From Marsupella aquatica (taxonomy: Eukaryota; Plantae; Marchantiophyta): a stretch of 64,000 nt of DNA. The notes beneath the pieces are model-generated. The model had not been told where the DNA came from, searched no databases, and saw only the letters and a program-made list of their open reading frames with translations. The position numbers and the translations under genes were made by a program. Shown here in pieces: positions 1 through 51,220 of the stretch (the first letter of the stretch is position 1; each line of letters starts with the position of its first letter). Where the stretch lies: positions 23,559,899 to 23,623,898 of the forward strand of contig OZ316891.1 of NCBI GenBank assembly GCA_973895155.1. The letters are read 5' to 3'.

Positions 1-7
1 TAAACTA

Positions 8-23300: not shown

Positions 23301-23774
23301 AGCTCTGGATCAGAATCTGAAACTGATAATTGATGTATTTTTCTTTTCCAGATTTTACTAGCGCCGGGTGCTGTTATGAAAAGACATGTATTTCATTTCA
23401 TATGCTCATAATAAAAATCTAAAAACCACTTGTTGTCTTCAGTAGCACCGGGCGCTATTATCGAGGTACATGTATTTCTTATATAAAAGGTTTTAAATTG
23501 GTCTCTTCGTTTAGTAGCGTCGGGTGCTCCCCAAATGTGCAAAGTTTTCCATGAACCTTTACATCATAATATTGTTCATGCGTTCTGTCGCCATCCTGTT
23601 GCCATCCGTATATTGTCGTTACCTAATTAAGTTGGGTCTGTTTCAAAATAATCGTGTCGCAATTTGATTGTTTACTCAACGGTCCTCTGCCCGTTGAAGT
23701 TCGCATGTTACGGGTGTCCACCGATGACCGTCCTTTGGTAGTCACTATGTCAACCTTTTGGAGACGGTCGAGAA

Positions 23775-24394: not shown

Positions 24395-26149
24395 AGGTGT
24401 TCCAATTGCAGTCGCTTAGGTTATTTTGGAGTTCAACCCTACAGCGATTAGGTTCCTAGGTAGCTATATTTAAGCTAGCGCCAAGCGCTGCTAAAGCTGG
24501 ATGCTTTCTATATCCGTTTTTCAGTACTGAATGTTTTGTTAGGATTTGGTAATCTGGGTAATATGTTTTTGCTCATTTTTATAGGAAATGCTTTTTGGAT
24601 CGACCCATTTTCCTCTCCATGGCGTTACACATGGAAGGGCGGGATTTGTAGTTTTAAGCTAGTGTTGGGCGCTACTTATACTCATTGCTTTCCGTCGCCC
24701 ATGTAATCTCGGTGATATTTTTTCAACCATTTTTGAAGTAAATGAATTTGTGATTGGCTCAATCTCCAATGTATGGTTTTCGTACATTGGAGATTGAGCC
24801 ATCGAGAGGAAAACCATACATTCCTCCAATGTATGGTTTTCAATCTCCAATGTATGGTTTAAACTAGCAATGAGATTCGGATTTTGTTGTTGTATGACCC
24901 TGCCTCTTTTGATTTGAATTGCCTCGTTTTCAGCCGCTCATTGTCTTCTCGATTGAGGTTACGTAGATTTTTGTTGAATTTTTCCTTCTTCTATGAAACC
25001 CTACCAGCTTTCCATTCGCTTCATTGATACCAGCGCTAGGCGCTGGTAATCATCGCAAATTTGGGTCGGACTACCCAACGGGATATTTCGTCCGGAATGA
25101 GACTGTTTTAATGAAAATGACTCAAATGGGCTTTAATTTTGATTGTTTGGAATCCTTTTTTTGGTCTGATTTTTTTGGTTTTTACCTCCAATTCTCCTGG
25201 TAACAGTAACTGTTTCCTATTACTATTTCCTGTTACTGTTTCCTGGTTCCTGTCTTTTGTAAATACCCCCCTACAAGTCGCACAGTTCCTCTCCTCAGCC
25301 AAGGCCAGCAACAAATTCTTTGGCAATTTCCGCTCTTTGCAGGACATCAGCAAAATTGAACTGAATTGAAGGCCTCTGGGTGACAACAGTTCAATCCACA
25401 ACCACGACAATAGCAGCAGTAATCCGGGTCCAAAGTCTGGTCAGGCACGCATCCCTCCTATCTTATCCACATTCACCAACACCACCTGCTTTCACAGTTC
25501 GCATTCTCTCGACCTCTTTCAGTTCATTTCATTTTTCTCCCTTCCTTTGCGCGAGCACATACTGCCCTTTTTGTTCAACAATTTCCTCTCTTTCCCTCTA
25601 TTCCATCGTCGAACCTCATCACCCACTCCCTCCACTATAACAATCACCTCTGTTACTTCCATAGCAGTCACGACCAAATGAGTAACGACCACTGATGCCT
25701 CCGCCACTCAAAAAAATAAAATAAAATAATCTCAAGACCTCCACACTACAACAACATTTCCTTTCAGCTGAATCTCCCCCTTTTTCCTCTAAACTTCTGA
25801 GCGCATAGATCATCCTTTGAAAGCTTTTCGCCCTATTCCTCCCGTCCTCCTTATCCCCTCTTTACTTGATCACTTTTCAACTGCCTCCATTTTGCCCTTT
25901 GCCTTCCTCTTCTCGTTTCCTCATTCCTCTCAACTCTTTCCCAAGAATCCCTCTAACGCCCTCCGCGCCTCCAACTGCCATCTCCAACATGTCCTTATGA
26001 ATTCAAATACTCCCCAGGCCGCCACATTCCTCTTTGTTTCTTTCTTTCACAAACAGAGAACTAAATCATTCCGAGCCGGACAAAAGCAAGTCGACTAGAT
26101 CTAGCACACTCCACTTCAATTGTCAAACATTTTTCCCGACAACACCGGG

Positions 26150-27285
26150 GAGTGAGATAGAAATCCTTCCCATACACCCTTGTGGAATTGGTCTTGGGTT
26201 CCCATGATCCCACAAATTCTAATAAGTCTGAGTCCAGCACCTCCGGCTTCAGCCATGGTAATCTTACAAAGGTTTCCAAGCCGGATCCAGCCATGAAGCC
26301 CTAGTACTTCTTGGTCTGCATGGCCGTAAACCATGCATCCTCCTCCCGTGCAAAATGTAATTGCACTTCCTCTGGTAGGGTTGCCGCCCAGCCTTTCCAG
26401 GTGTCATCCTTTGTTGGAATGGCATTGATAGGATCGGCCTCCTCCTCTTCGGCTTCTCCCTGCATCTTGTTCTGATGCTCTGCTGGCTTCCTTGGTGCTG
26501 CCAACCTTGTTCTTTTTGCCGGGGTGGTCTCTTCGTTGTTGTTTCCTTTCCTCTTCATCTTGGCTATCGTGGATGTTTCTCCTAGCATAGTTGCCTTTGT
26601 CCACCCCTCTGTGCTACCCTTCAACTCCTAGTGCGCGTCATTGCAGCGGTTGATGGCTTCCCGAATGCCAACGATTTTGTCTTTGCAAAATAGAAGGTCA
26701 TCAAGCTGATTGGCAGTAGGAGTCCACAAGAACTTGGTCTTGATGAGTTCTCCTCCTAAGAAGGCAGACTTTTGTAGCTCCCACAATCGAGCGAGCTCCT
26801 GCTGTTCTTGAGCTGCTCTCTCTGATTCTTCGTCCTCGTAAGTCTTAATGTACTCAGTTGCCTGTTTGAACAGGCATCCCCAAAAATGTGCCGCTTGATT
26901 GACGTTGCTCATACCCTCGACTCAATCGTTGGTATCTGCTCCCACACCGAGTGCTTGCCTAAGCAACTGAAAGTAGTTGGCCTTCCGTAGTCGTCTGCCC
27001 AGTTTGTGCTTGCCAATGAGCCACCATTCCTCGCGAGCAGTCCTTACCCCTCTCCTCCTCTGGTCTTTCCTCCCATTGGTTACCCCTAGCCGCCGATGCT
27101 TAGCGCGCCCTAACCCTAATCGTGTTCTCTCCCCCGGCGTCCTTACCTCCGGCCACGGCCCGGGTTCCATAGTCACCCTTAATTGTTTATATTTTCCTTG
27201 TTTTTGTTACTATACTAATGTGTTTATAGGGTACACCTCTGTTTCCCCACTTAACTGGCCTAGTGATTCCTGGCTAGGCATCACA
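26150..27285 (-). repeat. Inverted 5' fragment of a family A LTR
   Basis: Reverse complement starts TGTGATGCCTAGCC at 27285; encodes MSNVNQAAHFW.. pieces with stops. Confidence 0.9.
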
Positions 27286-30200
27286 GGCGGCTTGCCAAAA
27301 AAAGAAGCAACCCTCTTGCCACCGTAGAAGAAATCCGCAAGGTGGCTTGGGAATAGAGGCCGAGGTGGTTGATGCCGATGACTTCTACTTACTCCACCTA
27401 TGCTAAAGATAGAGCCATGGAGTATGGGGAGATGTGTGGGGACCTGGCGCTCAGCACCTTTGGGGAGGAGTTGGAGCAGGGACCTTTTTTCCAGAGGGAG
27501 ATGTTGGAGAAGCACTGATTAGAAGAAGCGATGGCTTTGGAGAGAAGCAAGAAGGACGAGGTCATCCGGCGGCTTAGGGAGATGGAAGCCAAAGTGGAAG
27601 ACTTGCAAGCAGCCAAGAAAGCCCAAGATGAGCTGTGGATTAAGCGACATGAGCTAAACATCATGCAAGGACAATTGGATGCCGATCAGTGTGGCAATCA
27701 GATTATCAAAGATAAACTGACTCGGACCCAAGGAGAGTTGGTCGGCGCGGTCAAGGACATAGAAAAGTGGAAGCAGGAGCTGAGGGACGTAGAGGAGGCC
27801 CACATAACCGCCAACAACCGGGCCATGGCGGAGACTCAAAGAAAGGAGAGGGCGTTGAAAGGAGAGCTCAAGGATATCCGCGGAGCCCTTGAGCAGAAGG
27901 AGGCCGAATTAGGAAAATCCTATCAAGGGATTATTGCGCTGCAGCAGGAGCTTGCGTCCCTGACGGCCAGCTTCAAGGCCGACTTGCATGAGAAGGACAA
28001 CCAGCTCGACCAGACTTATGCCAAGATGAATAAGATGGAGTCTGAGGTTGTAGCGGAGCTTGACAAGGAGCTAAGAGCAACCTAGGAGGAGAGGGCTACC
28101 TTAAAATTGGAATTGGAGAAAGCCAGAAAGGAGCTGCAGGAGGGACAGAAGGACCTAGAGGAAGCCCAGGAGGAGTTGGAGGAAACCACCAGGAAAATGG
28201 AGAACTTACAGCGGTGGGCCGACAACCAAATGGAGCGACTAAAGAAACAGGCCGTAGTATTTAAATGCTTAGCTTCATCTGGTCCAACTCCAATTGTGGG
28301 AACTCTGTTACCAAGAGGGGTACTGGCCGAAGGACAAGCCGAGACACACGCCCCAGTGCCGGAGGTAGGTAGCAAGAGGAAGGGGCCAGCTACCAAAACA
28401 GGGAAGAAGAAGAAGCAAAAACCTTATGGGTCTGGGAGTTATACGGCTTACCAAGCCGTTGTGACCCAGGAGGTCAACCCGGCACCAACCTCCGGCATGG
28501 TCACGGCAATAGATCCACCTGTTGAAGAAGGTGGGGATGGCAAGGCCAAGGCCGGGACAGCTATCGATGAAGCCGAGGTACCGGATCCTCCACTAGAACA
28601 TGACGGGGGGGCCAAAGCCGTATTGAAGGCCGTGACCGATGCTGAGGCCAAATCCAAAGGTGGACTCGGTCTGGGGTAGGTAATCTATCAGAGGATGGAC
28701 CGACGGCAGTGGCTGCGGGGGAAGCGTTGGCAGCGTCTATTAAGGATCCGCCACCGGTGTCGTGACGGTGCAAGGGCATCGTTCCTTTAAGGAAGGGCAG
28801 ACGTGGAGGTAGGAGGCGTGAGTGGGCAGGGCGGGCTCAGATCTCCAAGTTTAGGATTAGGATCAAGACCAGGAGACTGCCCTGACACTTAGATTAGTGG
28901 GATGGCGGATCCACTGGTAGGAGCGACACTTGTGCTCCTGCCTCGCTGTACAGTTAGGTAGATTATAGGTAGGATAGATTAAGCTTACGCAACGAAGTTC
29001 TGGACAAATCCGTTGCCAGGATAAATACCTGGGCAGCGGGGAGTCCAGGGCCTCTTCTTTAACAAGTTTTTAGTTGCACCAATAGGGCTGGGATCAAGTA
29101 GTAAGAGAAGCTCTCGGTTAGTTATACAGTGACCCTTGTGTATATTCATGTTTCCTCATGCCTAAGAACTGAATAGAGTTAGCCTCACGGCTTAGTTCGC
29201 AGAGCTTTGTATGAGATGTACTGTTTGTATGGCAAGTGCATGGTATAACTCAGTCAGAAGGAGTCATTTTGCTATTTGTGTATCGCATTAACTTGTGTGA
29301 AGAGTGCCCACATCAATGAAGGGAAGTAGCAAGGGAGTGAGAGTTGGATGTGTCGAGCTAAGAGAGGTCTTAGCGGCTTAACCAAACCAATTGGAAATCA
29401 TTCCGGCGGCGGAATCCAAACATACCTAATGGAAGACCAGGAGAGGAATACAAGGGAAGGCCTAGAATAGGCCGGCTAAGTATCTCATGACCCAATGAAG
29501 GATCTGTCCAGTATATGTGTGTAAAATGTTAATAGTAGTAGAAGGAGAGTTCGCAGCGTCCCATGCCGCTAAGCCGCGGAAATGGCCTCGCCGAGGACAA
29601 AACCTGCGGGAATCGGCTTGAGCAAGGGGGTTTTCTTGGGTTTGGGGAGCCATGGGACACACCACATTTTTGGCGCTAGATGGAGGGGGCATTTCTTAAG
29701 CCGTGAGATATGAAGTTAGGAAGGAAGCGTGGGTAATGACTGAACCTACACCGAGAGAGGAAAGAGCGATTCAACGGGAGAGAGCTCGTCTGCAGCAGCT
29801 CGCCGGGTGGCATGATACACAGCGACTGAGAGGGGCAGAAAGAGCTAGTAGCTCCGTAATTGAAAGTGGCATCAAAGAAGACATACCAAAAGAAGGGTTG
29901 GTAAGGAGAAGTGAGTCTCCGACCGACATGGGGGAACCAGAGGCACGGCCAGATGAGAGGCCAGGGACCAGACTGAGCCAACGGTCGCATATTCATTACA
30001 AGGCCTTTCATGGAAGAGGAGATGAGGATCCGGACAAATGGTTGGATGACTTTGAAGGAACCGCTGCAGCAAATGGAGAATCGGCCATCAAGATGCAAAT
30101 TCTTCCCGACCTGTTCAAGGGTGAGGCTAGGCCTTGGTACAGAGCATTGGGCGTGGAAGATCAAGCCATCTGGAATACTTTCAGATCACTATTTGTCAAG

Positions 30201-31638
30201 GAGTTTCGACCCATTGGAACTTCAGAGTTAGCAGTGCTCAAGTTGGGATGACTTCGGTTCAAGGAGAACAAATCTTTCAGGAAGTTCCTGCAACGCTTCC
30301 AAAAGCTGGTAAGACGTACCAAGACCAATGCATCTGAAGGTATGCAACTTCAATGGTTAGTGAATGCTTTGCCACAGAAGATGAGTTTTGCAATTAGGAA
30401 GGAGAATCCAGAGACTTTAGTCGAGGCAATTAGAGATATTCAATTATACATTAATGCAGATATCACAAGCCGAAAGAAACAGCTTAAGTCTGAGAGTTCC
30501 TCATCGGAGGAAGGATCAACCCATAAGAAAAATGATAAGAAAAAGAAACATTCTAAGAAGTCAAGAAGTGATAACTCAAGCTCGGATAGTGGAGGTAGCA
30601 AGAGTGAGTCATCTTCTAGTTCTGAAGAAGAAAAAACTAGGAAAAGGAAGCGCAGAAGGAGGGGAAAGATGAAAGTCAAGATAGAGGCTAAAACACCAGA
30701 TAACATCATAGCCCTTACCGAGCAGCTTAAGGCTATAATAGCAGAGGTAAAACCAAAGAAGAAGGTAGTACAGGAGGATAGCTCTGTATGGTGTGCCTTA
30801 TGTTATAAAACCGGACACCATAAAGATGCGTGTCCTAAACTTAATACTAGTCATGTTCGGCATGTGGCTGAGGTCAGACCATGTCAGGGAGAAGTAGAGT
30901 ACTTTTTAGGGGATGCCGCTGATAGTGTTTTTGGCATCAGTGAGACTAGAGCACAAGACCTATCCAACAGACCTCCTAGGCCGAATGTGCAAAGATTTGC
31001 GGCATGCTATAATTGTGGTCAACCTGGTCATTTTGCTAGAGAATGCCCGAATGCACGCAAACAAGGTGATGGGCAACCAGCTCAGCTATGTATGGGATGC
31101 CGACAGGGGGGCCACCTGCTAGGACAATGTCCTACGTGGCTGGCAGGCCTGGCCGCAAATCATAAGCTCTTGCCAGTCAAGGTCTTGCCACCAGGTACTA
31201 CCCCCAGAGGAGCTCAAATCAACCACATCAAACTTGGATGGCAAACGGATGCCGAGGCAGAGTTTGGACCATCTGATGATGAGGCCGAGGCCCTATCAAC
31301 CTTCTCAGAGGAGGATTTGGATCATGATTGCTACCGGGTCTCTACTCGATCTACCAGAAGGAAGGAAAGGTGGGATGGGCTGGCCAAAAATAAAGGGAAG
31401 GATAAGGAAGAAAGAATTGACTCTTCGTCAACATCAACAGAAGGGGAAGGAAAGGCGCCGGCAACATAGGTAAGCCATGAGCCCACCAATGAGCCCAATC
31501 CTTCACAGGATAGCGACTTCAATCGAGATCACCCTAAGTTGTTCTACCCCTCTATTACGGCTAGTGTTAAGAAACAATTGCGAGAATTAGAAACCCTGGA
31601 GAATACCAAAGCCATAGCCAAGGATGTGAAACGAGCAA
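27286..31638 (+). mobile_element. Family A copy 3: truncated 5' LTR (27286-29666), PBS (29671-29688), gag remnant
   Basis: LTR end ACCACA, then TTTT, then TGGCGCTAGATGGAGGGG, then gag. Confidence 0.9.
29736..31638 (+). pseudogene. gag: Gag (retrotransposon gag domain plus 3 CCHC knuckles), internal stops, 75-bp in-frame deletion
   Basis: FHGRGDEDPDKWLDDF..EARPWY; CALCYKTGHHKDAC, CYNCGQPGHFAREC, CMGCRQGGHLLGQC. Confidence 0.9.
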
Positions 31639-32134: not shown

Positions 32135-33528
32135 TGTCAGGCTAAGGCAATATACTTACTGGTATAACACTTATGCAACTCGTACTAATCATAGGTATAT
32201 TTGTTTTCCACCGCTGGAATATTCCCACAATTAGTGACTCGGACTAACTCCCGGCTTGGGGCTTTCAAGCCATCGACGCGACAATACCTTGTGACATGCA
32301 ATGGGTGGCAATCCCTACCATTAGTCCACACCCGGTACGTCCCTTAAAATGGCGCCTTTGCCCAGACAAAGCATACACACAACACTAGTTACTCGCGAAA
32401 ACATTAGAGGGAAAAGACTACATTTACTCAGCGAAGAATCAGTTTACATAGTTGACTTGACTTCTAAGGGGGTCAGCGGGCCCAACGGCAATCGATGCCC
32501 AGTCTCTACGAGGCCCTGCCCCGCACTTGCCCAACAAGCTCAACTTTGGCTCTCACTCCTTGGTGCACTCTAACCCTGCTCAAGCCGGGACTCCCCATGC
32601 CTCGCCTTTCCTTACGCTGAAATAACTAAGCCTTTTCCCCCTTCCACAGCGGAAGGGGAAGCCTAAATACTACATTTGCGGAAAGGAACCGGAAGATACT
32701 ACCTCCCGGGGTAATGCCTACTGGCTAACTAACTTCTAACTAACCAACCGCACTCCTCTGACCGATTGACCGTCGGCGGCAAGGGCGCTGACCGGGGTGG
32801 CAGCAGCTAATCTACTGACCAAAATCTAGTCCGTTGATGGACCCAATCCTACGTTGGCTAATCCTAACTGATCCTGTCTTAATCCTTCCTACTGCGCCGC
32901 TAATCGACGCCTAATGACAGCTATTCTGTCGTTAAGCCTAATCAAAAAGATGTCGTTGACTCCACTGCGCCGCGCGGTGCCTGCTCACACCCTTTGCTAA
33001 CCACCCCTTACATGCATGTTGTGGTTGGACCAGGGTTTGTCTCCCTGTCGGGGCGAGACCTCAAGCCGCCTTGATCAGAGGTGGGCCCAAGTCTTCCCCG
33101 CTAGAGGACGAGTAGGGTAATGTGGTCTTGTAAGGCCTTGTTGTCCCGCACCGCCTCCTCTGCCTTGTTTGTAGCTTCATCGGCCTCCGTCTGGAGCCAT
33201 GCTACCTCCAGGTTGAGCTGGTTAATGGAGTCATGATGGGTCTGGTCCTGCGCCAGCAATTTATCCCGTTTGGCAAAAAGACTAGCCACCTGTTGAGCCG
33301 CTTGTAAGAATTGGTTGTTGAGGTCGGTCAGACTGGTAACCCGAGCCGAGGATTCCGAGCGCAACTGAAGCATGGTGTCGTCTAGCTTCTTGAGATCCGT
33401 TTATGCCTCGCTCAACTCCTGGGTTAGTCCGTCCCACTGCTCGACGGTGCGGGCTAACTCTTCACAGCGGGTAGTGGCCTCCTCCTCGAGGTGTTCTACC
33501 AGCATTTGGAGGCGCCCGATCTCATTCC

Positions 33529-36500
33529 TGTGATGCCTAGACAGGAATCACTCGGCCGGTTAAGTGGGTAAAGCAGGAAGGCACCCTAGGAACACCTTAG
33601 TATAGTGACAAAACAAGGAAAATATAAACAATTAGGGGCAACCATGGAACCCGGGCAGAGGCCGGAGGTAAGGCTGAGGGTGAAAACCCGATTAGGGTTA
33701 GGGCGCGTTAAGCGTCGGCGGCTAGGAAGGATCAACGGGAAGAAGGACCGGCAGAGGAGAGGGGTAAGGAGCGCTTGCAGGAGATGGTGGCTCATTTGCG
33801 AGCACGAACTAGGCAGACGACTACGGGAGGCCAACTACTGTCAGCTGCTTAGGCAAGCACTCGGGGAGAGAGTAGATACCGACGATCAACCTAAGGAGGG
33901 TATGAGCAACGTCAATCAAGCGGCACATTTCTGGGGATGCCTGTTCGAACGGGCAACTGAGTACATCAAGACTTACGAGGACGAGGAGTCAGAAAGGGCA
34001 GCTCGAGAACGGCAGGAGCTCGCTCGATTGTGGGAGCTGCAGAAGACGGCTTTCTTAGGAGGCGAACTCATCAAGGACGAGTTCCTGTGGACGCCTACTT
34101 CCAATCAACTCGACGATCTTCTGTTTTGCAAAGACAGCGTCGTCGGCATCCGAGAGGCCATCAAGAACTGCAACGACATACACTGGGAATTAAAGGGTAG
34201 CACGGAAAGGTGGACCCAGGCAACGGTGCTAGGAGAAACCTCCACGGCAGCAGAGATGAAGAGGAAGGGAGCCGTCAACGATGAAGCCACCCCGGCAAAA
34301 AGAACGAGGTCGGCGGCACCAAAGAAGCTAGCCGAGTAGCAGAGCAGGAGGCAGGGAGAAGCCGAAGAGGAGGAGGTCGATCCCATCAAGGCCATTCCAA
34401 CCAGGGATGACACCTGGAAGGGCTGGGCGGCAACCCTACCGGTGGAGGTGCAACTACATTTTGCACGGGAGGAGGATGCATGCTTTACGGCCATGCAGAC
34501 CAAGAAGTACCAAGGCTTCATGGCCGGATCCGGCTTGGAGGCCTTTGTAAGATTACCATGGCTGAAGCCGGAGGTACCGGAGTCAGACCTATTAGAATTC
34601 GTGGGGTCATGGGAACCCGAGACCAATTGCACGAGGATATATGGGAAGGATTTCTATCTTACTCCCAAGGTGATTGCCGAAGTGTTTGGCTTGCCGATGG
34701 GCAATAAGACCAAAGTTGATACCAGGAAGACCTTGCCTGACAAGGAGTTCCGGTCGTTCCCCGGGCCATCAACGAAGAATGGCTTCTTCCGGAACACCTG
34801 CACCAACCCGCACATAGGAGAGATGATCGACTTCTTGCGGGTGACCATGCATTGTAACTTGCCGAGGGCAGAGATCGGCAAGGCACAGGTCTATCTGGCA
34901 GAAAGGCCAGACCCAAGCCGGGACTACAACGGGTACCTCCTCAACCAATTGAAGAAGATCTTAAAGGAGGAGCAGCAGGTAATCGGCATGGGGAGCGTGT
35001 CGCGGCTTGGCTATCACATGCCGCTGTTGTGCCGGTATGCCAGAGGTCAGACTTTTGCCCCGGTACTTCCCCTGCAGGTAAGGGCACCCGAGGAAGCTCC
35101 AACGCCGAGGCCGTTGGCTGAGAAGCCTCAACCACCTGTTAGTCCTACGATCGAGCAGGTGTTTAGGCCCAGGAAGGAAGACTTGCCGATGCAGCAACCA
35201 GGCATGCAGAGTCTGCTGAAACTACTGGAGAAAGAAAAGAAATCGGCATCGGCAACAACAACGGCAACGGCAACAATGCAGGACACTACTACAGAGGTAG
35301 GCCTACACCGGCTCACAAGAGAAAACCCCTTTGCTGGAGACAAGGAGAGAATCAGGCCGGAATCCAAGCCAGGTGTTCGAATGTACGTGGGAACCTCAAG
35401 CTCCGAATCTGAGGCAGAATTGCCTGAAGCTCCTACCGAGGAAGAGGAGAGGGAGAAGCCGGAAATCCAAGAGGTAGAGGAGGCAGTGGAGGACTGCAGC
35501 CATGATAATTCCGGCTATGGATCGGACCATCACGTTCCAGGAGTAAGGACCTGTGGCCGGTTTGTCCCCACACTTCCAAGGGTAGTGCGAGGGGACCCCA
35601 ACCAGCAGAGTAGCCCTGAGTCTCCCCCACCAGATGTTGCTCCCCCGAGCTTCAACGGCATAAAACAGACGGTGCAGGAATTTCAGGAGCGAATCAAGCA
35701 GGAGGAAGAGGCCGCCCTGGCTAAGGAAAAGGATTTACCAGGAGGAGATTGGCCGGAGGACATCAGGCGGCTAGCCGAAAAAGGAAGCAAACCTCTAGCC
35801 ACGATTGAAGAGATCCGCAGGACGGCTTGGGAGCAGAGGCCACGATGGGCGATGCCGATCACTTCTACTTACTCCACCTACGCTAAGAATAGAGCCATGG
35901 AGTATGGTGAGATGTGTGGGGAACTTGCGCTCGGCATCTTTGGAGAGGAGTTGGAGGTAGGACCCTTTTTCCATAGGGAGCAGTTGGAGAAGCACCAATT
36001 AGAAGAAGCGGTGGCTTTAGAGAGAAGCAAGAAGGACGAGGTCATTCGGCGGCTTAGGAGGATGGGAGCCGAGATTGAAGATCTAAGGGCGGCCAAGAAA
36101 GCCCAAGATGAACTGCGGATTAAACGACATGAGCTGAATATCATGCAGGGGCAGTTGGACGCCGCGCAGGCTGATAATCAGAATATCAAGGATAAATTGA
36201 CTCAGACGCAGGAAGAGTTGGCCGACACGATCAAAGAAAGGGAAAAGTGGAAGCAAGAGCTGAAGAATACAGAGGAGGCCCACATAACAGCCAACAGCCG
36301 GGCCATGGCGGAGACCCAAAGAAAGGAATGGGCGTTGAAAGGGGAGCTCGAGAAAATCCGCGGAGCCCTTGAGCAGAAGGAGGTCGAGTTAGGGAAATCC
36401 TATCAAGGGATTATGGCGCTGCAGCAGGAGCTTGCGTCCCTGACGGCCAGCTTCAAGGCCGACCTAAGGGAGAAGGACGAGATGCTCGAACAGACTTACG

Positions 36501-38200
36501 CCAAGATGAACCAGATGGAGTCTGTCATCATTGCAGAGCTCGACAAGGAGCTAAGAGCAACCCAGGAGGAGAAGGCTACCTTGAAGAAGGAATTGGAGGA
36601 AGCCCACAGGGAGCAGGAGGAGGCCAAAAACAAGCTGGAGGGGGCATGTAAGGACCTGGATGAAACCCAAGAGGAGTTGGAGGAAATCACGAGGAAGATG
36701 GAGAACCTACAGCGGCGGGCCGACAACCAAACAGAGCGGCTGAAGAAACAAGCCGCAGTATTTAAATGCTTAGCTGCAGCAGGTCCATCTCCTGTTGGGA
36801 CAAACCAGTTACCAGGGGTGGTAATTGCCGAAGGACAAGCCGCGCCACCTGCACCAGTGCCGGAGGTAAGTGGGAAGGGGAAGGGACCAGCTGCCGAGCC
36901 ACCAACGAAGAAGAAGCGGAAACCTTCAGGGTCAAGGAGTAATACGACTTCACAGGCCGTGGTGATCAAGGAGGTAGACCCAGCACCGACCCCAGACAGG
37001 GTCACGGCTAAGGATCCAACTACCCTAGGGGAAGGGGAGGCCGAAGCCGTGGGGTTGGCTGAGGCCGAAGCCGTGGGGTTGGCTGAAGCCGAAGCCGTGG
37101 GGGTGGCTGAAGCCGAAGCCGTGGGAGTTGTCGAGGCTGAAGCCGAAGGTGGACCCAGTCAGGCCGATGGAGAGTTGACTCGGTCAAGGGCAGGTAATCT
37201 GTTAGTAGGCGGGCCAACGGCAGTGGCTGAGGAGGAAGTGTTGGGGGCGTCCATTGAGGATCCACCACCGGTGTCGTGACGGTGCAAGGGCACCGTTCCT
37301 TCTAGGGAGGGCGGACGTGGAGGGAGGAGGCGTGAGTGGGCAGGGCGGGCACGGATCTCCACGTTTAGGATTAGGATCAGAACCAGGAGCGGCCCTGACA
37401 CTTAGCTTAGTGGGATTGCGGTCCCACTGGTAGGAGCAACACTTGTGCTCCTGCCTTGCTGTACATAGGTAGATTCGGGCAAGTAGATTACTGTTAAGTA
37501 GATTAGGCTTACGATGCAAAGAATGGCGGATCCACTACCAGGATAAGTACCTGGGCAGCGGGGAGCTCAGGGCCTCTTCTTTAGCAAGTTTTTAGTTTGC
37601 ACCAGCCGGGCTGGGATCAAGTAGTACGAGAAGCTCTCGGTTAGTCATACAGTGACCCTTGTGTATATTCATGTTTCCTCATGCCTAAGAGCTGAATAGA
37701 GTTGGCCTCACGGCTTAGTTCGCAGAACTTGTGTATGAGATGTACTGTTTGTATGGCAAGTGCATGGTATGACTCAGTCAGAATGAGTCATTTTGCTATT
37801 TGTGTGTCGCATTAACTTGTGTGAAGAGTGCCCACATCAACAGAAGGAAGGAAAGTAAGCAGGGGAGTGAGAGTTGGATGTGTCGAGCTGAGAGAGGTCT
37901 TAGCGGCTTAACCAAGCCTATTGGGGATCATTCCGGCGGCGGAATCCAAACATACCTAACAAGACGGAGGGGAAGACAGGGGAAGACAGGGGAAGGCCTA
38001 TATTAGGCCGGCTACGTATCTCATGACCCGATGAAGGATCTGTCCAGTATATGTGTGTAAAATGTTAATAGTAGTAGTAGAAGGTTAGCAGCGTCCCATG
38101 CCGCTAAGCCGCGGAAACGGCCTCGCCAAGCACAAAACCTGCGGGAATCGGCTTGAGCTGGGGGGTTTCTTGGGTTTAGGGAGCCATGGGACGCACCACA
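33529..38200 (+). repeat. Family A 5' LTR (4672 bp)
   Basis: Starts after the TSD, ends 4 nt before the PBS. Confidence 0.93.
33644..37279 (+). CDS. LTR-encoded protein (1211 aa from 33644, or 1125 aa from likely ATG 33902) with a single TAG at 34337
   Basis: FW N-terminal helix, GLEAFVRLPW..LLEFV..FYLTPKVIAEVFGLP (PMD/Transposase_32-like), long coiled coil, basic KKKRKP, AEAEAVG repeats. Confidence 0.8.
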
Positions 38201-38204
38201 TTTT

Positions 38205-38222
38205 TGGCGCTAGATGGAGGGG
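38205..38222 (+). other. Primer binding site
   Basis: TGGCGCTAGATGGAGGGG just after the LTR CA, identical at 29671; the cognate tRNA was not identified. Confidence 0.85.
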
Positions 38223-38269
38223 GCATTTCTTAAGCCGTGAGATATGAAGTTAGAACGGAAGCGTAGGTA

Positions 38270-40010
38270 ATGACTGACCTTACGCCGAGGGAAGAAAGAG
38301 TGATTCAACGGGAGAGAGCTTGACTGCAGCAGCTCGCCGGGTGGCATGATACACAGCGACTGAGAGGGGCAGAAAGAGCTGGTAGCTCCGAAACTGGAAG
38401 TGGCGTCGAAGAAGACATACCAGAAGAAGAGTTGGTAAGGAGAAGTGAGTCTCCAACCGACATGGGGGAACCAGAGGCACGGCCAGACGAGAGGCCAGGG
38501 ACCAGATTGAGCCAGCGGTCGCGCATACATTACAAGGCATTTCATGGGAGAGGAGATGAGGATCCGGACGAATGGTTGGATGATTTCGAGGGAACCGCTG
38601 CAGCAAATGGAGAATCGGCCATCAAGATGCAGATTCTTCCCGGCCTGTTCAAGGGTGAGGCTAGGCCTTGGTACAGAGCATTAGATGTGGAAGATCAAGC
38701 CATCTGGGATATCTTCAAAACACTCTTTGTTAAGGAGTTTCGACCCATTGGAACTTCAGAACTAGCAGTGCTGAAGTTGGGACAACTTCGGTTCAAGGAG
38801 AACAAATCCTTCAGGAAGTTCTTGCAACGCTTTCAGAAACTGGTAAGACGTACAAAGACCAATGCATCTGAAGGTATGCAACTTCAATGGTTGGTGAATG
38901 CTTTGCCACAGAAGATGAGTTTTGCAATTAGGAAGGAGAACCCGGAGACCTTAGCCGAAGCAATTAAGGATATTCAATTATACATTAATGCAGATATCAC
39001 AAGCCGGAAGAAACAGCTTAAGTCTGAGAGTTCCTCATCAGAGGAGGGATCACCCCATAAGAAAAAAGATAAGAAGAAGAAACATTCCAAGAAGTCTAGA
39101 AGTGATAAGTCAAGCTCGGATAGTGGGAGTAGCAAGAGTGAGTCATCTTCTAGTTCTGAAGAAGAAAAAACTAGGAAAAGGAAGGGCAGAAGGAGAGGGA
39201 AGACGAAAGTCAAGATGGAGGCTAAGCCACCAGATAACATCGTAGCCCTTACCGAGCAACTTAAGGCTATCATTGCAGAGGTAAAACCAAAGAAGAAGGT
39301 AGTACAGGAGGATAGCTCTGTATGGTGTGCCTTATGTTATAAAACCGGACACCATAAAGATGCTTGTCCTAAGCTTAATACTAATCATGTTCGGCATGTG
39401 GCCGAGATCAGACCATGTCAGGGAGAAGTAGAGTACTTTTTGGGAGATGCCGCTGATAGTGTTTTCGGCATCAGTGAGACTGGAGCACGAGACCTATCCA
39501 ACAGACCTGCATCTCTGTGGTCAGGATTAAGGAACAATCCAGGAGAGATGTATCCTCGGATTATTCAGAACCCGTCAGTACCTCCTAGGCCGAATGTGCA
39601 AAGATTTGCGGCGTGCTATAATTGTGGTCAACCTGGCCATTTTGCTAGAGAATGCCCGAATGCACGCAAACAGGGTGATGGACAACCAGCTCAGCTATGT
39701 ATGGGATGCCGACAGGAAGGTCATATGCTAGGGCAATGTCCTACTTGGTTGGCAGGCCTGGCCGCAAATCATAAGCTTTTGCCGATCAAGATCTTACCGC
39801 CAGGTACTACCCCCGGAGGAGTTCAAATCAACCACATCGAACTAGGATGGCAAGAGGATGCCGAGGCAGAGTTTGTACCATCTGATGATGAGGCCGAAGC
39901 CCTATCAACCTTCTCAGAGGAGGATTTAGATCATGATTGCTACCAGGTCTCTACTCGATCTACCAGAAGGAAGGAAAGGTGGGATGGGCTGGCCAAAAAT
40001 AAAGGGAAGG
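38270..40010 (+). pseudogene. gag: Gag, early TGA at 38321, cut by the deletion junction at 40010
   Basis: Gag domain plus three CCHC knuckles. Confidence 0.9.
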
Positions 40011-43000
40011 TCAGCTGCTTAGGCAAGCACTCGGGGAGAGAGTAGATACCGACGATCAACCTAAGGAGGGTATGAGCAACGTCAATCAAGCGGCACATTT
40101 CTGGGGATGCCTGTTCGAACGGGCAACTGAGTACATCAAGACTTACGAGGACGAGGAGTCAGAAAGGGCAGCTCGAGAACGGCAGGAGCTCGCTCGATTG
40201 TGGGAGCTGCAGAAGACGGCTTTCTTAGGAGGCGAACTCATCAAGGACGAGTTCCTGTGGACGCCTACTTCCAATCAACTCGACGATCTTCTGTTTTGCA
40301 AAGACAGCGTCGTCGGCATCCGAGAGGCCATCAAGAACTGCAACGACATACACTGGGAATTAAAGGGTAGCACGGAAAGGTGGACCCAGGCAACGGTGCT
40401 AGGAGAAACCTCCACGGCAGCAGAGATGAAGAGGAAGGGAGCCGTCAACGATGAAGCCACCCCGGCAAAAAGAACGAGGTCGGCGGCACCAAAGAAGCTA
40501 GCCGAGTAGCAGAGCAGGAGGCAGGGAGAAGCCGAAGAGGAGGAGGTCGATCCCATCAAGGCCATTCCAACCAGGGATGACACCTGGAAGGGCTGGGCGG
40601 CAACCCTACCGGTGGAGGTGCAACTACATTTTGCACGGGAGGAGGATGCATGCTTTACGGCCATGCAGACCAAGAAGTACCAAGGCTTCATGGCCGGATC
40701 CGGCTTGGAGGCCTTTGTAAGATTACCATGGCTGAAGCCGGAGGTACCGGAGTCAGACCTATTAGAATTCGTGGGGTCATGGGAACCCGAGACCAATTGC
40801 ACGAGGATATATGGGAAGGATTTCTATCTTACTCCCAAGGTGATTGCCGAAGTGTTTGGCTTGCCGATGGGCAATAAGACCAAAGTTGATACCAGGAAGA
40901 CCTTGCCTGACAAGGAGTTCCGGTCGTTCCCCGGGCCATCAACGAAGAATGGCTTCTTCCGGAACACCTGCACCAACCCGCACATAGGAGAGATGATCGA
41001 CTTCTTGCGGGTGACCATGCATTGTAACTTGCCGAGGGCAGAGATCGGCAAGGCACAGGTCTATCTGGCAGAAAGGCCAGACCCAAGCCGGGACTACAAC
41101 GGGTACCTCCTCAACCAATTGAAGAAGATCTTAAAGGAGGAGCAGCAGGTAATCGGCATGGGGAGCGTGTCGCGGCTTGGCTATCACATGCCGCTGTTGT
41201 GCCGGTATGCCAGAGGTCAGACTTTTGCCCCGGTACTTCCCCTGCAGGTAAGGGCACCCGAGGAAGCTCCAACGCCGAGGCCGTTGGCTGAGAAGCCTCA
41301 ACCACCTGTTAGTCCTACGATCGAGCAGGTGTTTAGGCCCAGGAAGGAAGACTTGCCGATGCAGCAACCAGGCATGCAGAGTCTGCTGAAACTACTGGAG
41401 AAAGAAAAGAAATCGGCATCGGCAACAACAACGGCAACGGCAACAATGCAGGACACTACTACAGAGGTAGGCCTACACCGGCTCACAAGAGAAAACCCCT
41501 TTGCTGGAGACAAGGAGAGAATCAGGCCGGAATCCAAGCCAGGTGTTCGAATGTACGTGGGAACCTCAAGCTCCGAATCTGAGGCAGAATTGCCTGAAGC
41601 TCCTACCGAGGAAGAGGAGAGGGAGAAGCCGGAAATCCAAGAGGTAGAGGAGGCAGTGGAGGACTGCAGCCATGATAATTCCGGCTATGGATCGGACCAT
41701 CACGTTCCAGGAGTAAGGACCTGTGGCCGGTTTGTCCCCACACTTCCAAGGGTAGTGCGAGGGGACCCCAACCAGCAGAGTAGCCCTGAGTCTCCCCCAC
41801 CAGATGTTGCTCCCCCGAGCTTCAACGGCATAAAACAGACGGTGCAGGAATTTCAGGAGCGAATCAAGCAGGAGGAAGAGGCCGCCCTGGCTAAGGAAAA
41901 GGATTTACCAGGAGGAGATTGGCCGGAGGACATCAGGCGGCTAGCCGAAAAAGGAAGCAAACCTCTAGCCACGATTGAAGAGATCCGCAGGACGGCTTGG
42001 GAGCAGAGGCCACGATGGGCGATGCCGATCACTTCTACTTACTCCACCTACGCTAAGAATAGAGCCATGGAGTATGGTGAGATGTGTGGGGAACTTGCGC
42101 TCGGCATCTTTGGAGAGGAGTTGGAGGTAGGACCCTTTTTCCATAGGGAGCAGTTGGAGAAGCACCAATTAGAAGAAGCGGTGGCTTTAGAGAGAAGCAA
42201 GAAGGACGAGGTCATTCGGCGGCTTAGGAGGATGGGAGCCGAGATTGAAGATCTAAGGGCGGCCAAGAAAGCCCAAGATGAACTGCGGATTAAACGACAT
42301 GAGCTGAATATCATGCAGGGGCAGTTGGACGCCGCGCAGGCTGATAATCAGAATATCAAGGATAAATTGACTCAGACGCAGGAAGAGTTGGCCGACACGA
42401 TCAAAGAAAGGGAAAAGTGGAAGCAAGAGCTGAAGAATACAGAGGAGGCCCACATAACAGCCAACAGCCGGGCCATGGCGGAGACCCAAAGAAAGGAATG
42501 GGCGTTGAAAGGGGAGCTCGAGAAAATCCGCGGAGCCCTTGAGCAGAAGGAGGTCGAGTTAGGGAAATCCTATCAAGGGATTATGGCGCTGCAGCAGGAG
42601 CTTGCGTCCCTGACGGCCAGCTTCAAGGCCGACCTAAGGGAGAAGGACGAGATGCTCGAACAGACTTACGCCAAGATGAACCAGATGGAGTCTGTCATCA
42701 TTGCAGAGCTCGACAAGGAGCTAAGAGCAACCCAGGAGGAGAAGGCTACCTTGAAGAAGGAATTGGAGGAAGCCCACAGGGAGCAGGAGGAGGCCAAAAA
42801 CAAGCTGGAGGGGGCATGTAAGGACCTGGATGAAACCCAAGAGGAGTTGGAGGAAATCACGAGGAAGATGGAGAACCTACAGCGGCGGGCCGACAACCAA
42901 ACAGAGCGGCTGAAGAAACAAGCCGCAGTATTTAAATGCTTAGCTGCAGCAGGTCCATCTCCTGTTGGGACAAACCAGTTACCAGGGGTGGTAATTGCCG

Positions 43001-44370
43001 AAGGACAAGCCGCGCCACCTGCACCAGTGCCGGAGGTAAGTGGGAAGGGGAAGGGACCAGCTGCCGAGCCACCAACGAAGAAGAAGCGGAAACCTTCAGG
43101 GTCAAGGAGTAATACGACTTCACAGGCCGTGGTGATCAAGGAGGTAGACCCAGCACCGACCCCAGACAGGGTCACGGCTAAGGATCCAACTACCCTAGGG
43201 GAAGGGGAGGCCGAAGCCGTGGGGTTGGCTGAGGCCGAAGCCGTGGGGTTGGCTGAAGCCGAAGCCGTGGGGGTGGCTGAAGCCGAAGCCGTGGGAGTTG
43301 TCGAGGCTGAAGCCGAAGGTGGACCCAGTCAGGCCGATGGAGAGTTGACTCGGTCAAGGGCAGGTAATCTGTCAGTAGGCGGGCCAACGGCAGTGGCTGA
43401 GGAGGAAGTGTTGGGGGCGTCCATTGAGGATCCACCACCGGTGTCGTGACGGTGCAAGGGCGCCGTTCCTTTTAGGGAGGGCGGACGTGGAGGGAGGAGG
43501 CGTGAGTGGGCAGGGCGGGCACGGATCTCCACGTTTAGGATTAGGATCAGAACCAGGAGCGGCCCTGACACTTAGCTTAGTGGGATTGCGGTCCCACTGG
43601 TAGGAGCAACACTTGTGCTCCTACCTTGCTGTACATAGGTAGATTCGGGCAAGTAGATTACTGTTAAGTAGATTAGGCTTACGATGCAAAGAATGGCGGA
43701 TCCACTACCAGGATAAGTACCTGGGCAGCGGGGAGCTCAGGGCCTCTTCTTTAGCAAGTTTTTAGTTTCCACCAGCCGGGCTGGGATCAAGTAGTACGAG
43801 AAGCTCTCGGTTAGTCATACAGTGACCCTTGTGTATATTCATGTTTCCTCATGCCTAAGAGCTGAATAGAGTTGGCCTCACGGCTTAGTTCGCAGAACTT
43901 GTGTATGAGATGTACTGTTTGTATGGCAAGTGCATGGTATGACTCAGTCAGAATGAGTCATTTTGCTATTTGTGTGTCGCATTAACTTGTGTGAAGAGTG
44001 CCCACATCAACAGAAGGAAGGAAAGTAAGCAGGGGAGTGAGAGTTGGATGTGTCGAGCTGAGAGAGGTCTTAGCGGCTTAACCAAGCCTATTGGGGATCA
44101 TTCCGGCGGCGGAATCCAAACATACCTAACAAGACGGAGGGGAAGACAGGGGAAGACAGGGGAAGGCCTATATTAGGCCGGCTACGTATCTCATGACCCG
44201 ATGAAGGATCTGTCCAGTATATGTGTGTAAAATGTTAATAGTAGTAGTAGAAGGTTAGCAGCGTCCCATGCCGCTAAGCCGCGGAAACGGCCTCGCCAAG
44301 CACGAAACCTGCGGGAATCGGCTTGAGCTGGGGGGTTTCTTGGGTTTAGGGAGCCATGGGACGCACCACA
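40010..44370 (+). repeat. Family A 3' LTR lacking its first ~311 bp; contains a second copy of the LTR ORF (40072-43449)
   Basis: Near-identical to 33840-38200. Confidence 0.93.
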
Positions 44371-44375
44371 ATTCC

Positions 44376-46203
44376 CTTTTGCCATGAGTTCTTCTTCCAA
44401 GCGGCTTACGATCCGTGGTTGGTGCTCTAACATGAAGAAGGCTGGTTGAAAGTACACCGAGACTTGTTGTCCGATGTACATCGCCAGCTCCCCTGATAGA
44501 GTCTGACTAAACTTCTAGACCAGGTCGTAGGCCATGGTCCCCGGGGCTACTTGGTAGTCCTCCATCCTCTCGGGCACCAGTGGTTCCTCGGGTGGGGCAA
44601 TAAGCTCCTCCGTAGTCTATACTAGGGAGGGGAAGGTTTCTGCAGGTGGTGGAGGGATTGGGGGTGGTTGTACTGGGGGTAGCGGAGGCTCAACGGAAGG
44701 GGGCGGTGGAATTTCAATAGGAGGGGGTGACGGAGTATTAATCGGGGCTTCCGGTTTGGGGTTTGCCCGAGGCACAGTAGTCTGCTTGCTCGGGGTAGCC
44801 TCCTCCGTAGTGGGGGTAACATTAGTCAGGGCTGAGGTGGCCATGTTCTTTCCCCTGGCCTCCCGCCGCGCTTTGTACCAGGCAAGGATGATGGCGATAT
44901 GACTTCCTAGGTAAGTCTTCCCCCCGATAGCCATACCTCCCTGAGCCCGCTTAAGCTCCCCCGAAAACCTACGGTAAAAACATTGGGCCCAGTTCCGTCG
45001 TTTTTACTATTCCACTTGTACGATTGTACAGAGGGAGATCTTGGATCGTGGCTCAATCATGTGAAGGGTAGTCCGTATGAAGTTAAGCCGCTCCATACAG
45101 ACTAAATTGGTGCACGACCCCTGCTTTTATCCGTTGTCTGTCTTACCCTCGGGTTTGAAGTGCCGAGGCGTATACTCCTTATCCCAAATTTGGAGTTCAA
45201 CTGACACCGGTCCGGTGGGCAGACAGAAGATCTGTGCTAACCGATGCTCCATGAGTGATAAGGTCTGCCCCGAAACCTTGGTGGTTGATGCATCAGTATC
45301 AAAATTGGAGATGAACTCACAAATCTCCTTTGGCCCAGCTGCGCACGGTCTCCATAGCAAGTGAGCAAATTGCTCCAACTGATGCCCCTTGAGATAGTCC
45401 GCGTGATCGAGTTTCTTGATCGCGATCCAGACTACTTTGGGGACGCGGATTACCTGTAATAAGTTGGACTTCAGGTTATTCGTGGGCCGTCGGGTCTGGT
45501 TGGTTGGGGGGTTGGTCGGGCCAGGTGCAGGGGCGACGTTGGTTTGCGTTGTTGCTTCGGGGGCCGGTGTCGTCCTTGCCCGCTTCCGAGAACACTGCTC
45601 AAGCTGCGGACTAACACGCTCGGAGTCCGAGGAACACTTGGTGTTGTTCACTGGACGGACTTGGGACCGGTTAGGAGGTATGCCGGTGGTCATTGGCTGA
45701 GGGGCTGGTGGTGTCGGGGTAGCCATATCCTGGGTGAAGGCGTTGGAGCTTTCCTCGAGGAACATAAGATTACGCGCCACTTCCCGTTGTCAGCTGATGT
45801 CTTCTTGGCGCTTTTTGGCCGCGATCTGCTGGTTGAGGTACCCTGGGATCTTGTCAAACTCCGCTTGAGTAAGCCGCTGGCTGCCCTTCAGCCTAAAGAA
45901 CTTTGCGGGGACTTCAAGAATCGCCTCTGCTACCGATCTAAGCCCTTTCTTGCTGAGATATAGCTTGGTGATGTAGTCTCGTAGCTTGTTGTAGCTGGAA
46001 TCCTGGGTGATGGCTGCCTTCTCGCAGTTAACCTGTGCTACCTTGGCCACCAACTTTGCGTATCTTCTTTTGTAAGCGGCTTTCTTGGGACAAGAGTACC
46101 AGTAAGTCTCGGAGAACTTAGCACCTACCTCGCCAAACAAGGTCCAAAATCCCAAGGTTGTAAGGGTCATACTAACCTTTGTAGTCTGGTTTGTTGAGTC
46201 CAC
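44376..46203 (-). pseudogene. Family B LTR ORF, N-terminal and PMD-like parts (continues at 33523 to about 33000)
   Basis: LGFWTLF; DYLKGHQLEQFAHLLW..ICEFISNFD..LAQIFCLPTG; IGGKTYLGSHIAIILAWY. Confidence 0.8.
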
Positions 46204-46959
46204 ATTCTCGTCCGGCCGGTCTGCTTGCTTGTGGAGGCCTTACTCGTCTTGACTAAATCTTGCCACAATCCGCCCTTATCCCTCGATGATCTCCTTGTAA
46301 AGGTCAGCTTGATTCAAGCCAAAGAGGCGAGAGAATGGTAGCGTCCACAGATTCTGAAAGGTGGAAATGAGCAAATGGCTCGCAGCTCCATCGACTCCGC
46401 TCTTATGGAGGTGCCAGGGTGAGCTCAAGCGTGAGAGGGAAAGGCTGTTTTGGTTGTTGATAATGAGCTAAAGTCGGCATCTCGGTCCAACCATGATTCT
46501 CCTAACGGATTTTTACTCCGCCGCCGCCACCGTACCGCGGTCGAGCATAATAATCCTCTTCCTTAATTTGTAATCATTCAATCAACTAACCTACTCCTAA
46601 TCTATTCATAATGGCAAAGACGGCTATTCGTGCTATTCTACGCTACGGCTATGGTCCTAATGACCGTATAAGTCTTAATCTAGGACCCGCGTTCGGTTAA
46701 GTGACATGTTACCCGTGTCACATGTATTAGTAAAATGAACATGGTGGAGGACGACGTTTCTTACATACAATGTACCATGCGACATTAGTAACTGCTTCCC
46801 ATACGACGTAAAAACAAAAAATGTCAGGTAGAAAGATGTAAAGTGAGATGGACAACGTAAAGTAACCAAGTAACATAGTCATATACGACGTTGTTTGAAA
46901 GAATGCAACGTTAAAAGTCAGACTTTCTTGTTCTCACATTGCGTTGAGGAAAATATTAC

Positions 46960-49350: not shown

Positions 49351-51112
49351 GACATTGGAGAGGATTGAGGTAGACTGAGTGTTGCTGCTGCCACAAGTTC
49401 TGGAGTGAGTTCGGAGAGGAGGTACATTGTGAGGCCGACTGTTACTTGGTTTGGATCGAGCTTGATAGAAACTGATGAGGTCTCCACCATAGCTTTTTGC
49501 TTGTTTCCCTCCCGGTTTCCCTGCGTTCTGCTTTCTTCTTATGTTTCTCTCTTTATATGTGTTAGGAGGATGACAACGCTACACAGGAAGGTTGGCGGAA
49601 AGTTTAGGCTGCTGTCTGGTTCTTTAGTTGCGGGATTGAGCTGTGTGATTGCTTGCAAAAAGATGCAGACCCAGAAGGAATGCTTGGTGAGGGCGGAAGA
49701 GTGAAGGAAGTCTTTCATCTCCCAGGTTAGAATCTATCACTTTGCTTGCAAACTTCACAGGAGTGACAAACAAAGTCTATGTTGTCACAGTCACAAGCCT
49801 GTGTGATTGCATTGCCTTGAAAAGAGCTACCCTGAAATCCAGCGTAGAAGCTTCTGAAAAGTTGCACATCTGATCCCCACTCGCATTGGCAGGATTGTCC
49901 ATTTAGGGTGAACTTAGCAAGGGACATTCTATTTGGTCCCATTGCTTGGTGGTTCTCGGTGATCAGTTATTTCTTGGTGATTGGTGCTTCCTTTGTGATC
50001 GGTGCTCGATCTTCATTGTGATTAGTGCTCGCTATCCAAATCAGATCCAATCTGATCCTGCACTATGCTGTGCAATGAAGGTATGAATGTTGCTATGAAT
50101 GACTCATTTTGTGGGTTCCAAAGTGAATGAAAGTCTTCTTTGGTTTTGTTTTGTTGCAGCTTGGCTTAGCAGAATGCACAGCTAGAGTTGCCTTCAACGT
50201 AGGACCTCAAGGTAGAATTGTGGAGGTAGTAGACAGACAGACCCTCAGAGTCTAAATCTTCTTGGAGTATTGAAGGAAGCTTGTTGTGAACGATGTCACA
50301 ATGCAGGTCAACATTATTGTCTACAAGGGCTACATTCTGAATTATTTGCTCCATTGTTGTCTTTGTAGGGCGAGTTCACTTACTAGTGGTACGTGGGTCT
50401 CGGATCGTGTTGTTTAGGGCTGTATTCTATATCAGTGTTGTGCAGAGGACAACATACTCCAGGTGTGGATCTCCCCTCTTTTCAGTTATGGTCTGGTGTA
50501 TGTACTATAGTTGAAGTTGTGCAGAATTATTCAACTGTTTGACTGATTTGAATGTACAGAGACAGAATAACTATGATATGTTTTAATTGTGCACTGAGGA
50601 ATGTGCAGATTCAATCAATCTTGGGTGGTGAGCACGAGTTTGGGTTCTCGTTTGACTACAGAAGTTTTGGGGAGGCTAGGATCCAAGTAAGCTCCACATT
50701 GTTGCAGAGGACAACAGGGCCTTTAGCTTTAGGGTTGACTGTGCCATGGGTTGTTGTGACGCCGCCGGTATGGCGAGTAATGAGTAATTTGGTCTAAACC
50801 GTGCCTAGCATGCGCGTTAGGGGTATCTTAGGCCGCTATGATTAGCATAACGACAGTATTTAGGTAGCCATTATGAGTAGGAAATCATTAGTCAATAAGG
50901 GGAATTCATGTTCGGGCTGGCGGCACGTCCCCATTCGCACGCCCGGGTTACAAGCGTGGAGGGGCCCTCCCTCGGGTCCGTATAACAAACTTTGGGAGGC
51001 ATCCGCTGACACGTGGTGACTCAGACCGGCGGAGTGGCCGGTACACTACAAGCGTGAACGGTTCAGCCTATGGGCAGCGAGGAGATGATGGGGGATTGGC
51101 AAGCCCTCAAGG

Positions 51113-51118
51113 TATAAA
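51113..51118 (+). promoter_or_regulatory. TATA box
   Basis: TATAAA 108 bp upstream of the ATG, followed by a CT-rich leader. Confidence 0.6.
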
Positions 51119-51220
51119 GAGGGAGCCGACCCTTTGGAGTGCACCAGTCCATCAGTCCACGCGCCAGCTTTGATCCCAGCTCTCTCATTCTCTCTAAGTC
51201 GCCACTACTATCTCCTCTAA

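Follow-up and report, generated by a model that had tools for sequence, protein, structure and literature searches.

Extra open reading frames (ORFs) of plant long terminal repeat (LTR) retrotransposons have been placed in the internal region (PMC7264820), and excerpts of PMC6317226 report LTRs of up to ~5 kb and class such ORFs only as up- or downstream of pol, so some of them may lie in LTRs. Athila elements of the Ty3/Gypsy type commonly, though not universally, carry an extra ORF in the 3' internal region. The window analysed here is a 64-kb stretch of the liverwort Marsupella aquatica (assembly GCA_973895155.1, contig OZ316891.1, positions 23,559,899 to 23,623,898 of the forward strand), in which an Athila-type Gypsy element almost certainly carries its accessory gene inside a giant LTR. 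An accessory gene within a 3.6-4.7-kb LTR is present in several divergent families and is a real, lineage-wide and unusual arrangement.

The element shares with Athila a reverse transcriptase-ribonuclease H-integrase (RT-RH-INT) order without an aRH domain or chromodomain, a 5-bp target-site duplication (TSD), a gag-stop-pol layout, a sense extra ORF 3' of pol and, in a relative named L002, a layout with two polypurine tracts (PPTs). It differs from Athila in that the ORF lies inside both LTRs, no 3' internal region is left, and the product has no transmembrane helix; an extra ORF in a 3' internal region was seen in L002 alone. Ogre, Retand and Tekay elements also have very long LTRs (to ~5 kb) and accessory ORFs (ORF0 of Retrosat2, gene23 of Grande, the latter having a promoter to itself and a product located in the nucleus), but those ORFs are described as internal, either upstream of gag or between pol and the 3' LTR, and Tat elements contain the aRH that is absent here. 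Accessory genes that lie in or overlap the U3 part of the LTR include sag of mouse mammary tumour virus and nef of human immunodeficiency virus, which are much shorter, retroviral and encode unrelated proteins. Phygy and Selgy, non-chromoviruses of plants without seeds, resemble the element in that the polyprotein occupies the whole internal region, but excerpts of PMC6317226 give them a 4-bp TSD, a tRNA-Trp or tRNA-Ala primer binding site (PBS), no extra ORF and a length of 5-8.6 kb. No description of an ORF-in-LTR layout in a retrotransposon was found in the accessible portions of PMC7264820, PMC6317226, PMC12885004, PMC3485330, PMC5735166, PMC13547354, PMC2829016, PMC11963269 and bioRxiv 2024.09.27.615353, a coverage outside which most subscription journals lie.

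Limits of the giant LTR and its gene

Self-comparison of the window revealed five LTR pieces of one family (family 1), designated copies A-E, with the following features.

2..2590, plus strand: end of pol (RT-RH-INT; no chromodomain, no aRH), overlapping the LTR by 12 nt
2543..2578, plus strand: conserved GTTCGC..CAC block, PPT (2566-2575) and CTA; no other block of this kind is in the window
2579..7149, plus strand: copy A, 3' LTR of 4571 bp; ORF with three stops and a frameshift
26137..27285, minus strand: copy E, first 1.15 kb of the LTR with the same 5' TG, abutting copy D inversely
27284..31469, plus strand: copy D, a 5' LTR represented by its 3' part (end 29666), PBS at 29671, gag with a terminal TAG beyond which the frame is open
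33524..33528, plus strand: left TSD ATTCC, right partner at 44371-44375
33529..38200, plus strand: copy B, 5' LTR of 4672 bp, TG..CA
33902..37279, plus strand: extra ORF of 1125 codons, interrupted by TAG at 34337-34339 (145 + 979 codons)
37037..37145, plus strand: 24-bp coding tandem repeat whose copy number differs between LTR copies
38205..38222, plus strand: PBS, identical to that at 29671 behind copy D
38324..40009, plus strand: gag (Retrotrans_gag, CCHC), cut by an internal deletion
40010..44370, plus strand: copy C, 3' LTR without its first 311 bp; same ORF and same TAG as copy B

The preliminary description had proposed a Gypsy LTR of 4.6-4.7 kb bounded by the PPT, the PBS, TG..CA ends and ATTCC, with pol passing the PPT and stopping inside the LTR, and each of these points was borne out. 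In copy A, pol and the PPT AAGTGGGGAG (2566-75) stand ahead of the LTR-opening TG at 2579, pol stops at 2590, and the sequence downstream of the LTR is unrelated. Copy B opens with TG at 33529 and closes with CA at 38200, followed by the PBS and gag, and copy E opens at 27285 on the minus strand with the same TGTGATGCC in a different flank. The 5' end of the LTR is defined by three occurrences, each with a different flank, and the 3' end by four. ATTCC stands on both sides of the B-C unit, and the reading frame of the element that hosts this unit runs on across the site if one TSD is counted (a 1-in-3 check).

Copy C matches copy B from 33840 onward with 6 differences in 4361 bp (Kimura two-parameter distance 0.0014). 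The B-C unit is a 10.8-kb deletion derivative in which the protease (PR)-RT-RH-INT region and the PPT are missing and the 3' LTR is short of its first 311 bp (junction 40009/40010). Since the 5' LTR is complete despite the missing PPT, the deletion appears to be later than the insertion. A splice origin of the deletion was ruled out, since acceptor-like bases are kept at the junction and the gag of copy D has no GT there. This gag (30252-31469) lacks 25 codons that copy B has, and the frame stays open for at least 59 codons after its TAG. No complete family 1 element occurs in the window; copies A and B together imply one of roughly 16 kb.

The lack of a complete element would also suit an artefact, in which a ~0.9-kb LTR behind an ordinary 3' internal ORF is made to look giant by truncation, nesting or mis-assembly, as would a purine run followed by TG at 37319-37334 and a weak PPT-like match behind the ORF stop. 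This explanation is extremely improbable: the same TG opens three copies in different flanks, the TSD adjoins 33529, the sole PPT block of the LTR-proximal type is at 2543, and an independent solo LTR of a second family and inverted LTR ends in two relatives (L004 and L005) show the same arrangement. The 37319 run is interrupted in A and D, which rules it out as a working PPT, and the sequence on either side of it is common to all four copies.

The LTR had been described as holding an entire ORF of >1100 aa. The ORF does lie within the LTR and spans 1125 codons, but the evidence places its start at 33902 rather than 33647, and a premature TAG at 34337-39, absent from that description, splits it. 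A start at ATG 33647 was rejected, as dN/dS (the ratio of non-synonymous to synonymous change) is 0.87 over 33647-33901, differences are even over codon positions and copy E has frameshifts; this stretch is unconstrained and the start is therefore ATG 33902. The TAG is common to B and C and reads CAG in A and CAT in E, sense codons that rule out programmed read-through. Three further stops and a 2-bp frameshift disrupt copy A, the compared parts have 3 stops in D and 2 in E, and the ORF is intact in none of the five copies. Between A and B, 33902-37276 contains 131.5 synonymous differences in 751 sites and 112.5 non-synonymous differences in 2504 sites (dN/dS 0.23, p 5e-28), as against 1.06 and 1.4 in the other two frames, and the extra ORF is therefore a gene under purifying selection despite its broken copies. 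The presence of the stop in both LTRs indicates that the element most likely replicated while carrying it, so that the product was dispensable in cis, supplied in trans, or begun at ATG 34493; the ORF from this codon has 928 codons and leaves out 27 residues at the start of the modelled core.

A tblastn search with the family 1 ORF found diverged homologues at 52172-52711 (27%, E 8e-18) and 45459-44791 (26%, E 1e-15), which belong to families 2 and 3.

50755..54730, plus strand: family 2 solo LTR, 3976 bp, TSD GTTGT (50750-54 and 54731-35), TATA at 51113
51221..53830, plus strand: intact 869-codon homologous ORF within the family 2 solo LTR; core 27% identical, E 8e-18
32290..46722, minus strand: family 3 LTR-like unit, ~3586 bp without the B-C insertion, TGTGACA..TGTCACA, degenerate homologous ORF

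The family 2 unit is a solo LTR that retains its gene, which agrees with the earlier claim that the ORF survives solo-LTR formation. Its ends are TGTGACG..CGTGACA, the only TGT..ACA pair with a TSD within the ranges scanned. As a plain pair of this kind is expected 0.58 times by chance around family 2 (0.008 with a TGTGA start), the border call rests on the start motif and on the CpG step at both borders (4 to 18, and 13 to 2, per 300 bp). The family 3 unit has 7-bp perfect inverted ends with no matching TSD and no clear PBS, and is less certain than family 2. A second copy of the family 3 ORF end (31639-32133, 91% identical) is joined to the internal region of copy D. A 14-nt palindrome-like TTCCGGCGGCGGAA, a candidate cis element, occurs in the 3' part of the LTR in both family 1 (37931-37944) and family 2 (54546-54559), regions that cannot otherwise be aligned with each other.

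Lineage, relatives and origin of the layout

The order gag then RT-RH-INT, together with TG..CA LTRs, PBS, PPT and TSD, identifies a Ty3/Gypsy element. Pfam searches found no chromodomain in the window pol and no aRH between RH and INT or after INT (the PR-RT linker being outside the window), and neither domain in the full pol of L002, L004 and L005. The TSDs are 5 bp long (ATTCC in family 1, GTTGT in family 2); the REXdb summary table, as excerpted from PMC6317226, gives Athila a 5-bp TSD, Phygy a 4-bp NCGN TSD and Selgy a 4-bp TSD and a length of about 5 kb. The TSD length, the gag-stop-pol layout and the lack of aRH and chromodomain agree with Athila and rule out Phygy, Selgy and Tat, and the element is classed as Athila-related against the description in that table rather than against reference sequences.

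Among the best 120 of 4350 pol matches, the closest named relatives are from liverworts (Calypogeia fissa, 66% over 61% of the query; Riccia sorocarpa, 45-55%; Marchantia, 47%), whereas full-length angiosperm matches, presumably Athila elements, are about 41% identical and form a clade separate from the liverwort/metagenome clade that contains the element. No pol relatives were found among viral or prokaryote contigs. Athila elements have a PBS for tRNA-Asp or tRNA-Asn; the PBS in the window is provisionally taken to be of the tRNA-Asn type and that of the relatives of the tRNA-Asp type. A search with the ORF core gave 76 representatives, with species named for 3 of the 10 looked up, all Calypogeia fissa. 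These pol and ORF matches by themselves point to a liverwort as the likely host. A word-seeded search with the 979-aa ORF piece gave 0 matches among 7988 candidates, and ORF alignments were too diverse for locus scans.

One metagenome scan gave 75 loci, of which eight (L001-L008) have a near-full-length pol at 53-56%; L009 and L010 are close and lack the pol end, and the remaining loci are more distant. These relatives show two layouts. L002 is a circular contig holding a whole element, in which pol ends at 3717 and is followed by a PPT-like tract with no TG behind it (PPT1), a 742-codon ORF homologous to the window core (E 2e-8), a GTTCGC..CAC block with PPT and TGTGATG at 6574 (PPT2), a 991-bp LTR and a PBS. 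Its layout, with the homologous ORF between an upstream and an LTR-proximal PPT, is the likely ancestral state and resembles Athila4 and Calypso, for which an extra PPT is already known (PMC2829016, in part). In five of the eight (L004-L008), the GTTCGC..CAC block, PPT and TG stand 12-87 nt past the pol stop; a leader comes next, and the homologous ORF is reached 500-769 nt in. The contigs of L005 and L008 hold only 60-70 residues of this ORF, a call made by eye. For both L004 and L005, the bases behind the PPT are an inverted repeat of those ahead of the PBS (9/9 and 12/13), which means that the LTR starts there. A second PPT of the block pattern was not found in the stretches downstream or at the LTR end that the contigs of L005, L006 and L007 cover; no contig spans a whole LTR. 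L001 and L003 have a PPT1-type tract behind pol, in L001 followed by TG and the ORF, and both contigs end early.

In a careful tree of 19 rows the window clade (100/100) and L004-L008 (100/100) are joined at 85/88 with L001-L003 outside, and the same node has 95 in a quick tree of 46 rows. A single origin of the in-LTR ORF in these two groups is plausible; the ORFs of L004-L008 are nearer to those of L001 and L002 than to the window ORFs.

The PPT2 block of L002 matches the window best at 2542 (score 60, including TGTGATG; next best 28), and the junction behind pol is therefore of the LTR-proximal type, unlike the product of a plain switch to PPT1. On balance this slightly favours an origin in which the GTTCGC..CAC, PPT and TG end block was duplicated or moved to the pol end, in front of the ORF, with loss of the downstream PPT; plus-strand priming would as a result now copy the ORF into both LTRs. 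The preliminary description had suggested instead that the ORF was captured by simple use of the upstream PPT, PPT1 gaining a TG end. PPT1 lies directly behind pol in L002, the order in L001 could be a simple switch, and the extra PPT of Athila4 and Calypso offers a precedent; this course is nevertheless doubtful, given the PPT2-type block behind pol in the window and L004-L008, the TGTGATG common to the window and the short LTR of L002, and the normal lack of an attachment site at upstream PPTs (PMC2829016, in part). Insertion of an ORF cassette into U3 is rated a little lower still.

37293..37312, plus strand: weak match to the PPT1-type block of L002 and L003, 14 nt past the ORF stop; a possible relic

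This match is the top one in the window for the L002 and L003 queries and is missed by the L001 query, and its score in copy B was reached by 57 and 30 of 2000 shuffles. It is absent in other families (F, G, L006 and L007). It hints at a rearrangement in family 1.

Predicted protein and expression

34412..35095, plus strand: globular core, predicted VANC21/DUF1985/PMD-like fold
35993..36760, plus strand: coiled-coil segments (crude heptad scan)
33623..33628, plus strand: TATAAA kept in A, B and E; candidate promoter of the extra ORF

The model of the core very probably has a VANC/PMD fold. Its sole structural match, obtained twice, is a sequence-specific DNA-binding anti-silencing protein, and DUF1985 is a lead from Atlas only (0.84-0.89). 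Foldseek against the pdb and viral sets gave no match at E<=0.001, nor did a second look at its 273 chains, and neither a PDB sequence search nor Pfam (DUF1985, PMD) gave a match for the ORF protein. A KKKRK basic cluster (36908-36922) follows the coiled-coil segments, and an env-like test found no transmembrane helix (maximum 19-residue hydropathy 0.46-1.30 in 6/6 pieces). With VANC21/VANC of the VANDAL (Mu-like) DNA transposons, the PMD proteins MAIN/MAIL1 and the retrotransposon PMD-A, the protein shares the predicted core fold, a coiled coil, coding by a transposable element and a variable region with tandem peptide repeats, and sister-clade LTRs share the motif-rich non-coding DNA. It differs in being encoded by a Gypsy LTR in a bryophyte-type host, in its 8-14% identity and in the absence of a Pfam match; VANC, unlike the window protein, has been described as dicot-specific. 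Short motifs do not accumulate in the non-coding LTR DNA of the three window families, whereas (A)TCCGGA(A) is extremely dense in that of L004, L005, L007 and L008 (in L005, ATCCGGA 26 times in 2054 bp).

The gene probably lies in U3 as its own transcription unit, with a TATA box near the LTR start, 3' UTR-like sequence past the stop and a gag-pol promoter near the LTR end. The order of signals in L005, with AATAAA, 1.2 kb of motif-rich DNA and then TATAAAA 150 nt ahead of the LTR end, fits such a unit. Families 1 and 2 have no clear late TATA, which weighs against a U3 placement and leaves room for R or U5, where the TATA near the LTR start would be the sole promoter, strong-stop DNA would be ~4.5 kb and gag-pol would be expressed by splicing or read-through. 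The best TATA boxes precede the ORF (33623; 51113, 108 nt before the ATG of family 2; L005, L006, L008), and splice-donor-like motifs stand soon behind them, GAG/GTAAG in A, B and E (33664-33672) and GTGGTGAGG in L004, L006 and L008. A location in R or U5 is nonetheless unlikely, as a TATA stands 100-150 nt ahead of the LTR end in L005 and L002, a minus-strand strong-stop DNA of 4.5 kb would be extreme, and the ancestral ORF position is 3' of pol.

Function and significance

The ORF would encode a nuclear protein with a VANC/PMD-fold DNA-binding domain and a coiled coil, which likely acts in trans so that copies of its own element can still be transcribed. Sequence-specific anti-silencing or trans-activation in trans would explain the replication of copy B although both LTRs contain a stop, and this role is given an even chance. 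A nuclear scaffold or chaperone of the same structure, serving particle assembly, nuclear import or integration-site tethering, is a weaker possibility. The coiled coils are long, and nuclear or transport roles have been proposed for the extra ORFs of plants (PMC7264820); a common fold proves no function and the window LTRs lack arrays of a target motif, both of which are counted in favour of this reading. The identity of the sole structural match, the motif enrichment in sister-clade LTRs and the replication of an element with a broken cis copy speak against a scaffold. The combined picture of an Athila-related element whose LTR starts at the pol end and contains a selected, trans-acting VANC/PMD-like gene is held with moderate confidence.

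Elsewhere in the window, 14342-17090 and 20759-23302 form a diverged pair of two-ORF units (66-77% DNA identity), in which the ORF at 15418-16716 has a weak N6_N4_Mtase match (E 8e-4, below the cut-off) and is possibly a transposon-borne DNA methyltransferase-like gene. Translation motifs mark a Ty1/Copia INT-RT-RH remnant at 59931-63833 (minus strand). Cys/His-rich ORFs at 8332-11816 (minus strand) and 56937-58358 (plus strand) have no Pfam match and by eye resemble SWIM/zinc-finger DNA-transposon genes. Short tandem arrays occur at 20199-20386 (period 26), 49038-49256 (period 35) and 17552-17718 (13/62 bp).

The function of plant extra ORFs is a long-standing question, to which the VANC21/PMD fold gives a specific structural lead. 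Solo-LTR formation is predicted not to remove a gene placed in this way, and annotation pipelines with LTR size limits are predicted to miss such elements or to call their solo LTRs host genes. The LTR may, tentatively, be a self-contained anti-silencing cassette that unites a promoter, a VANC-like gene and the target DNA of its product. If so, a solo LTR, usually the inert end product of removal by the host, would go on acting in trans to de-silence its family, and VANC-type counter-silencing would predate the dicots and serve retrotransposons too.

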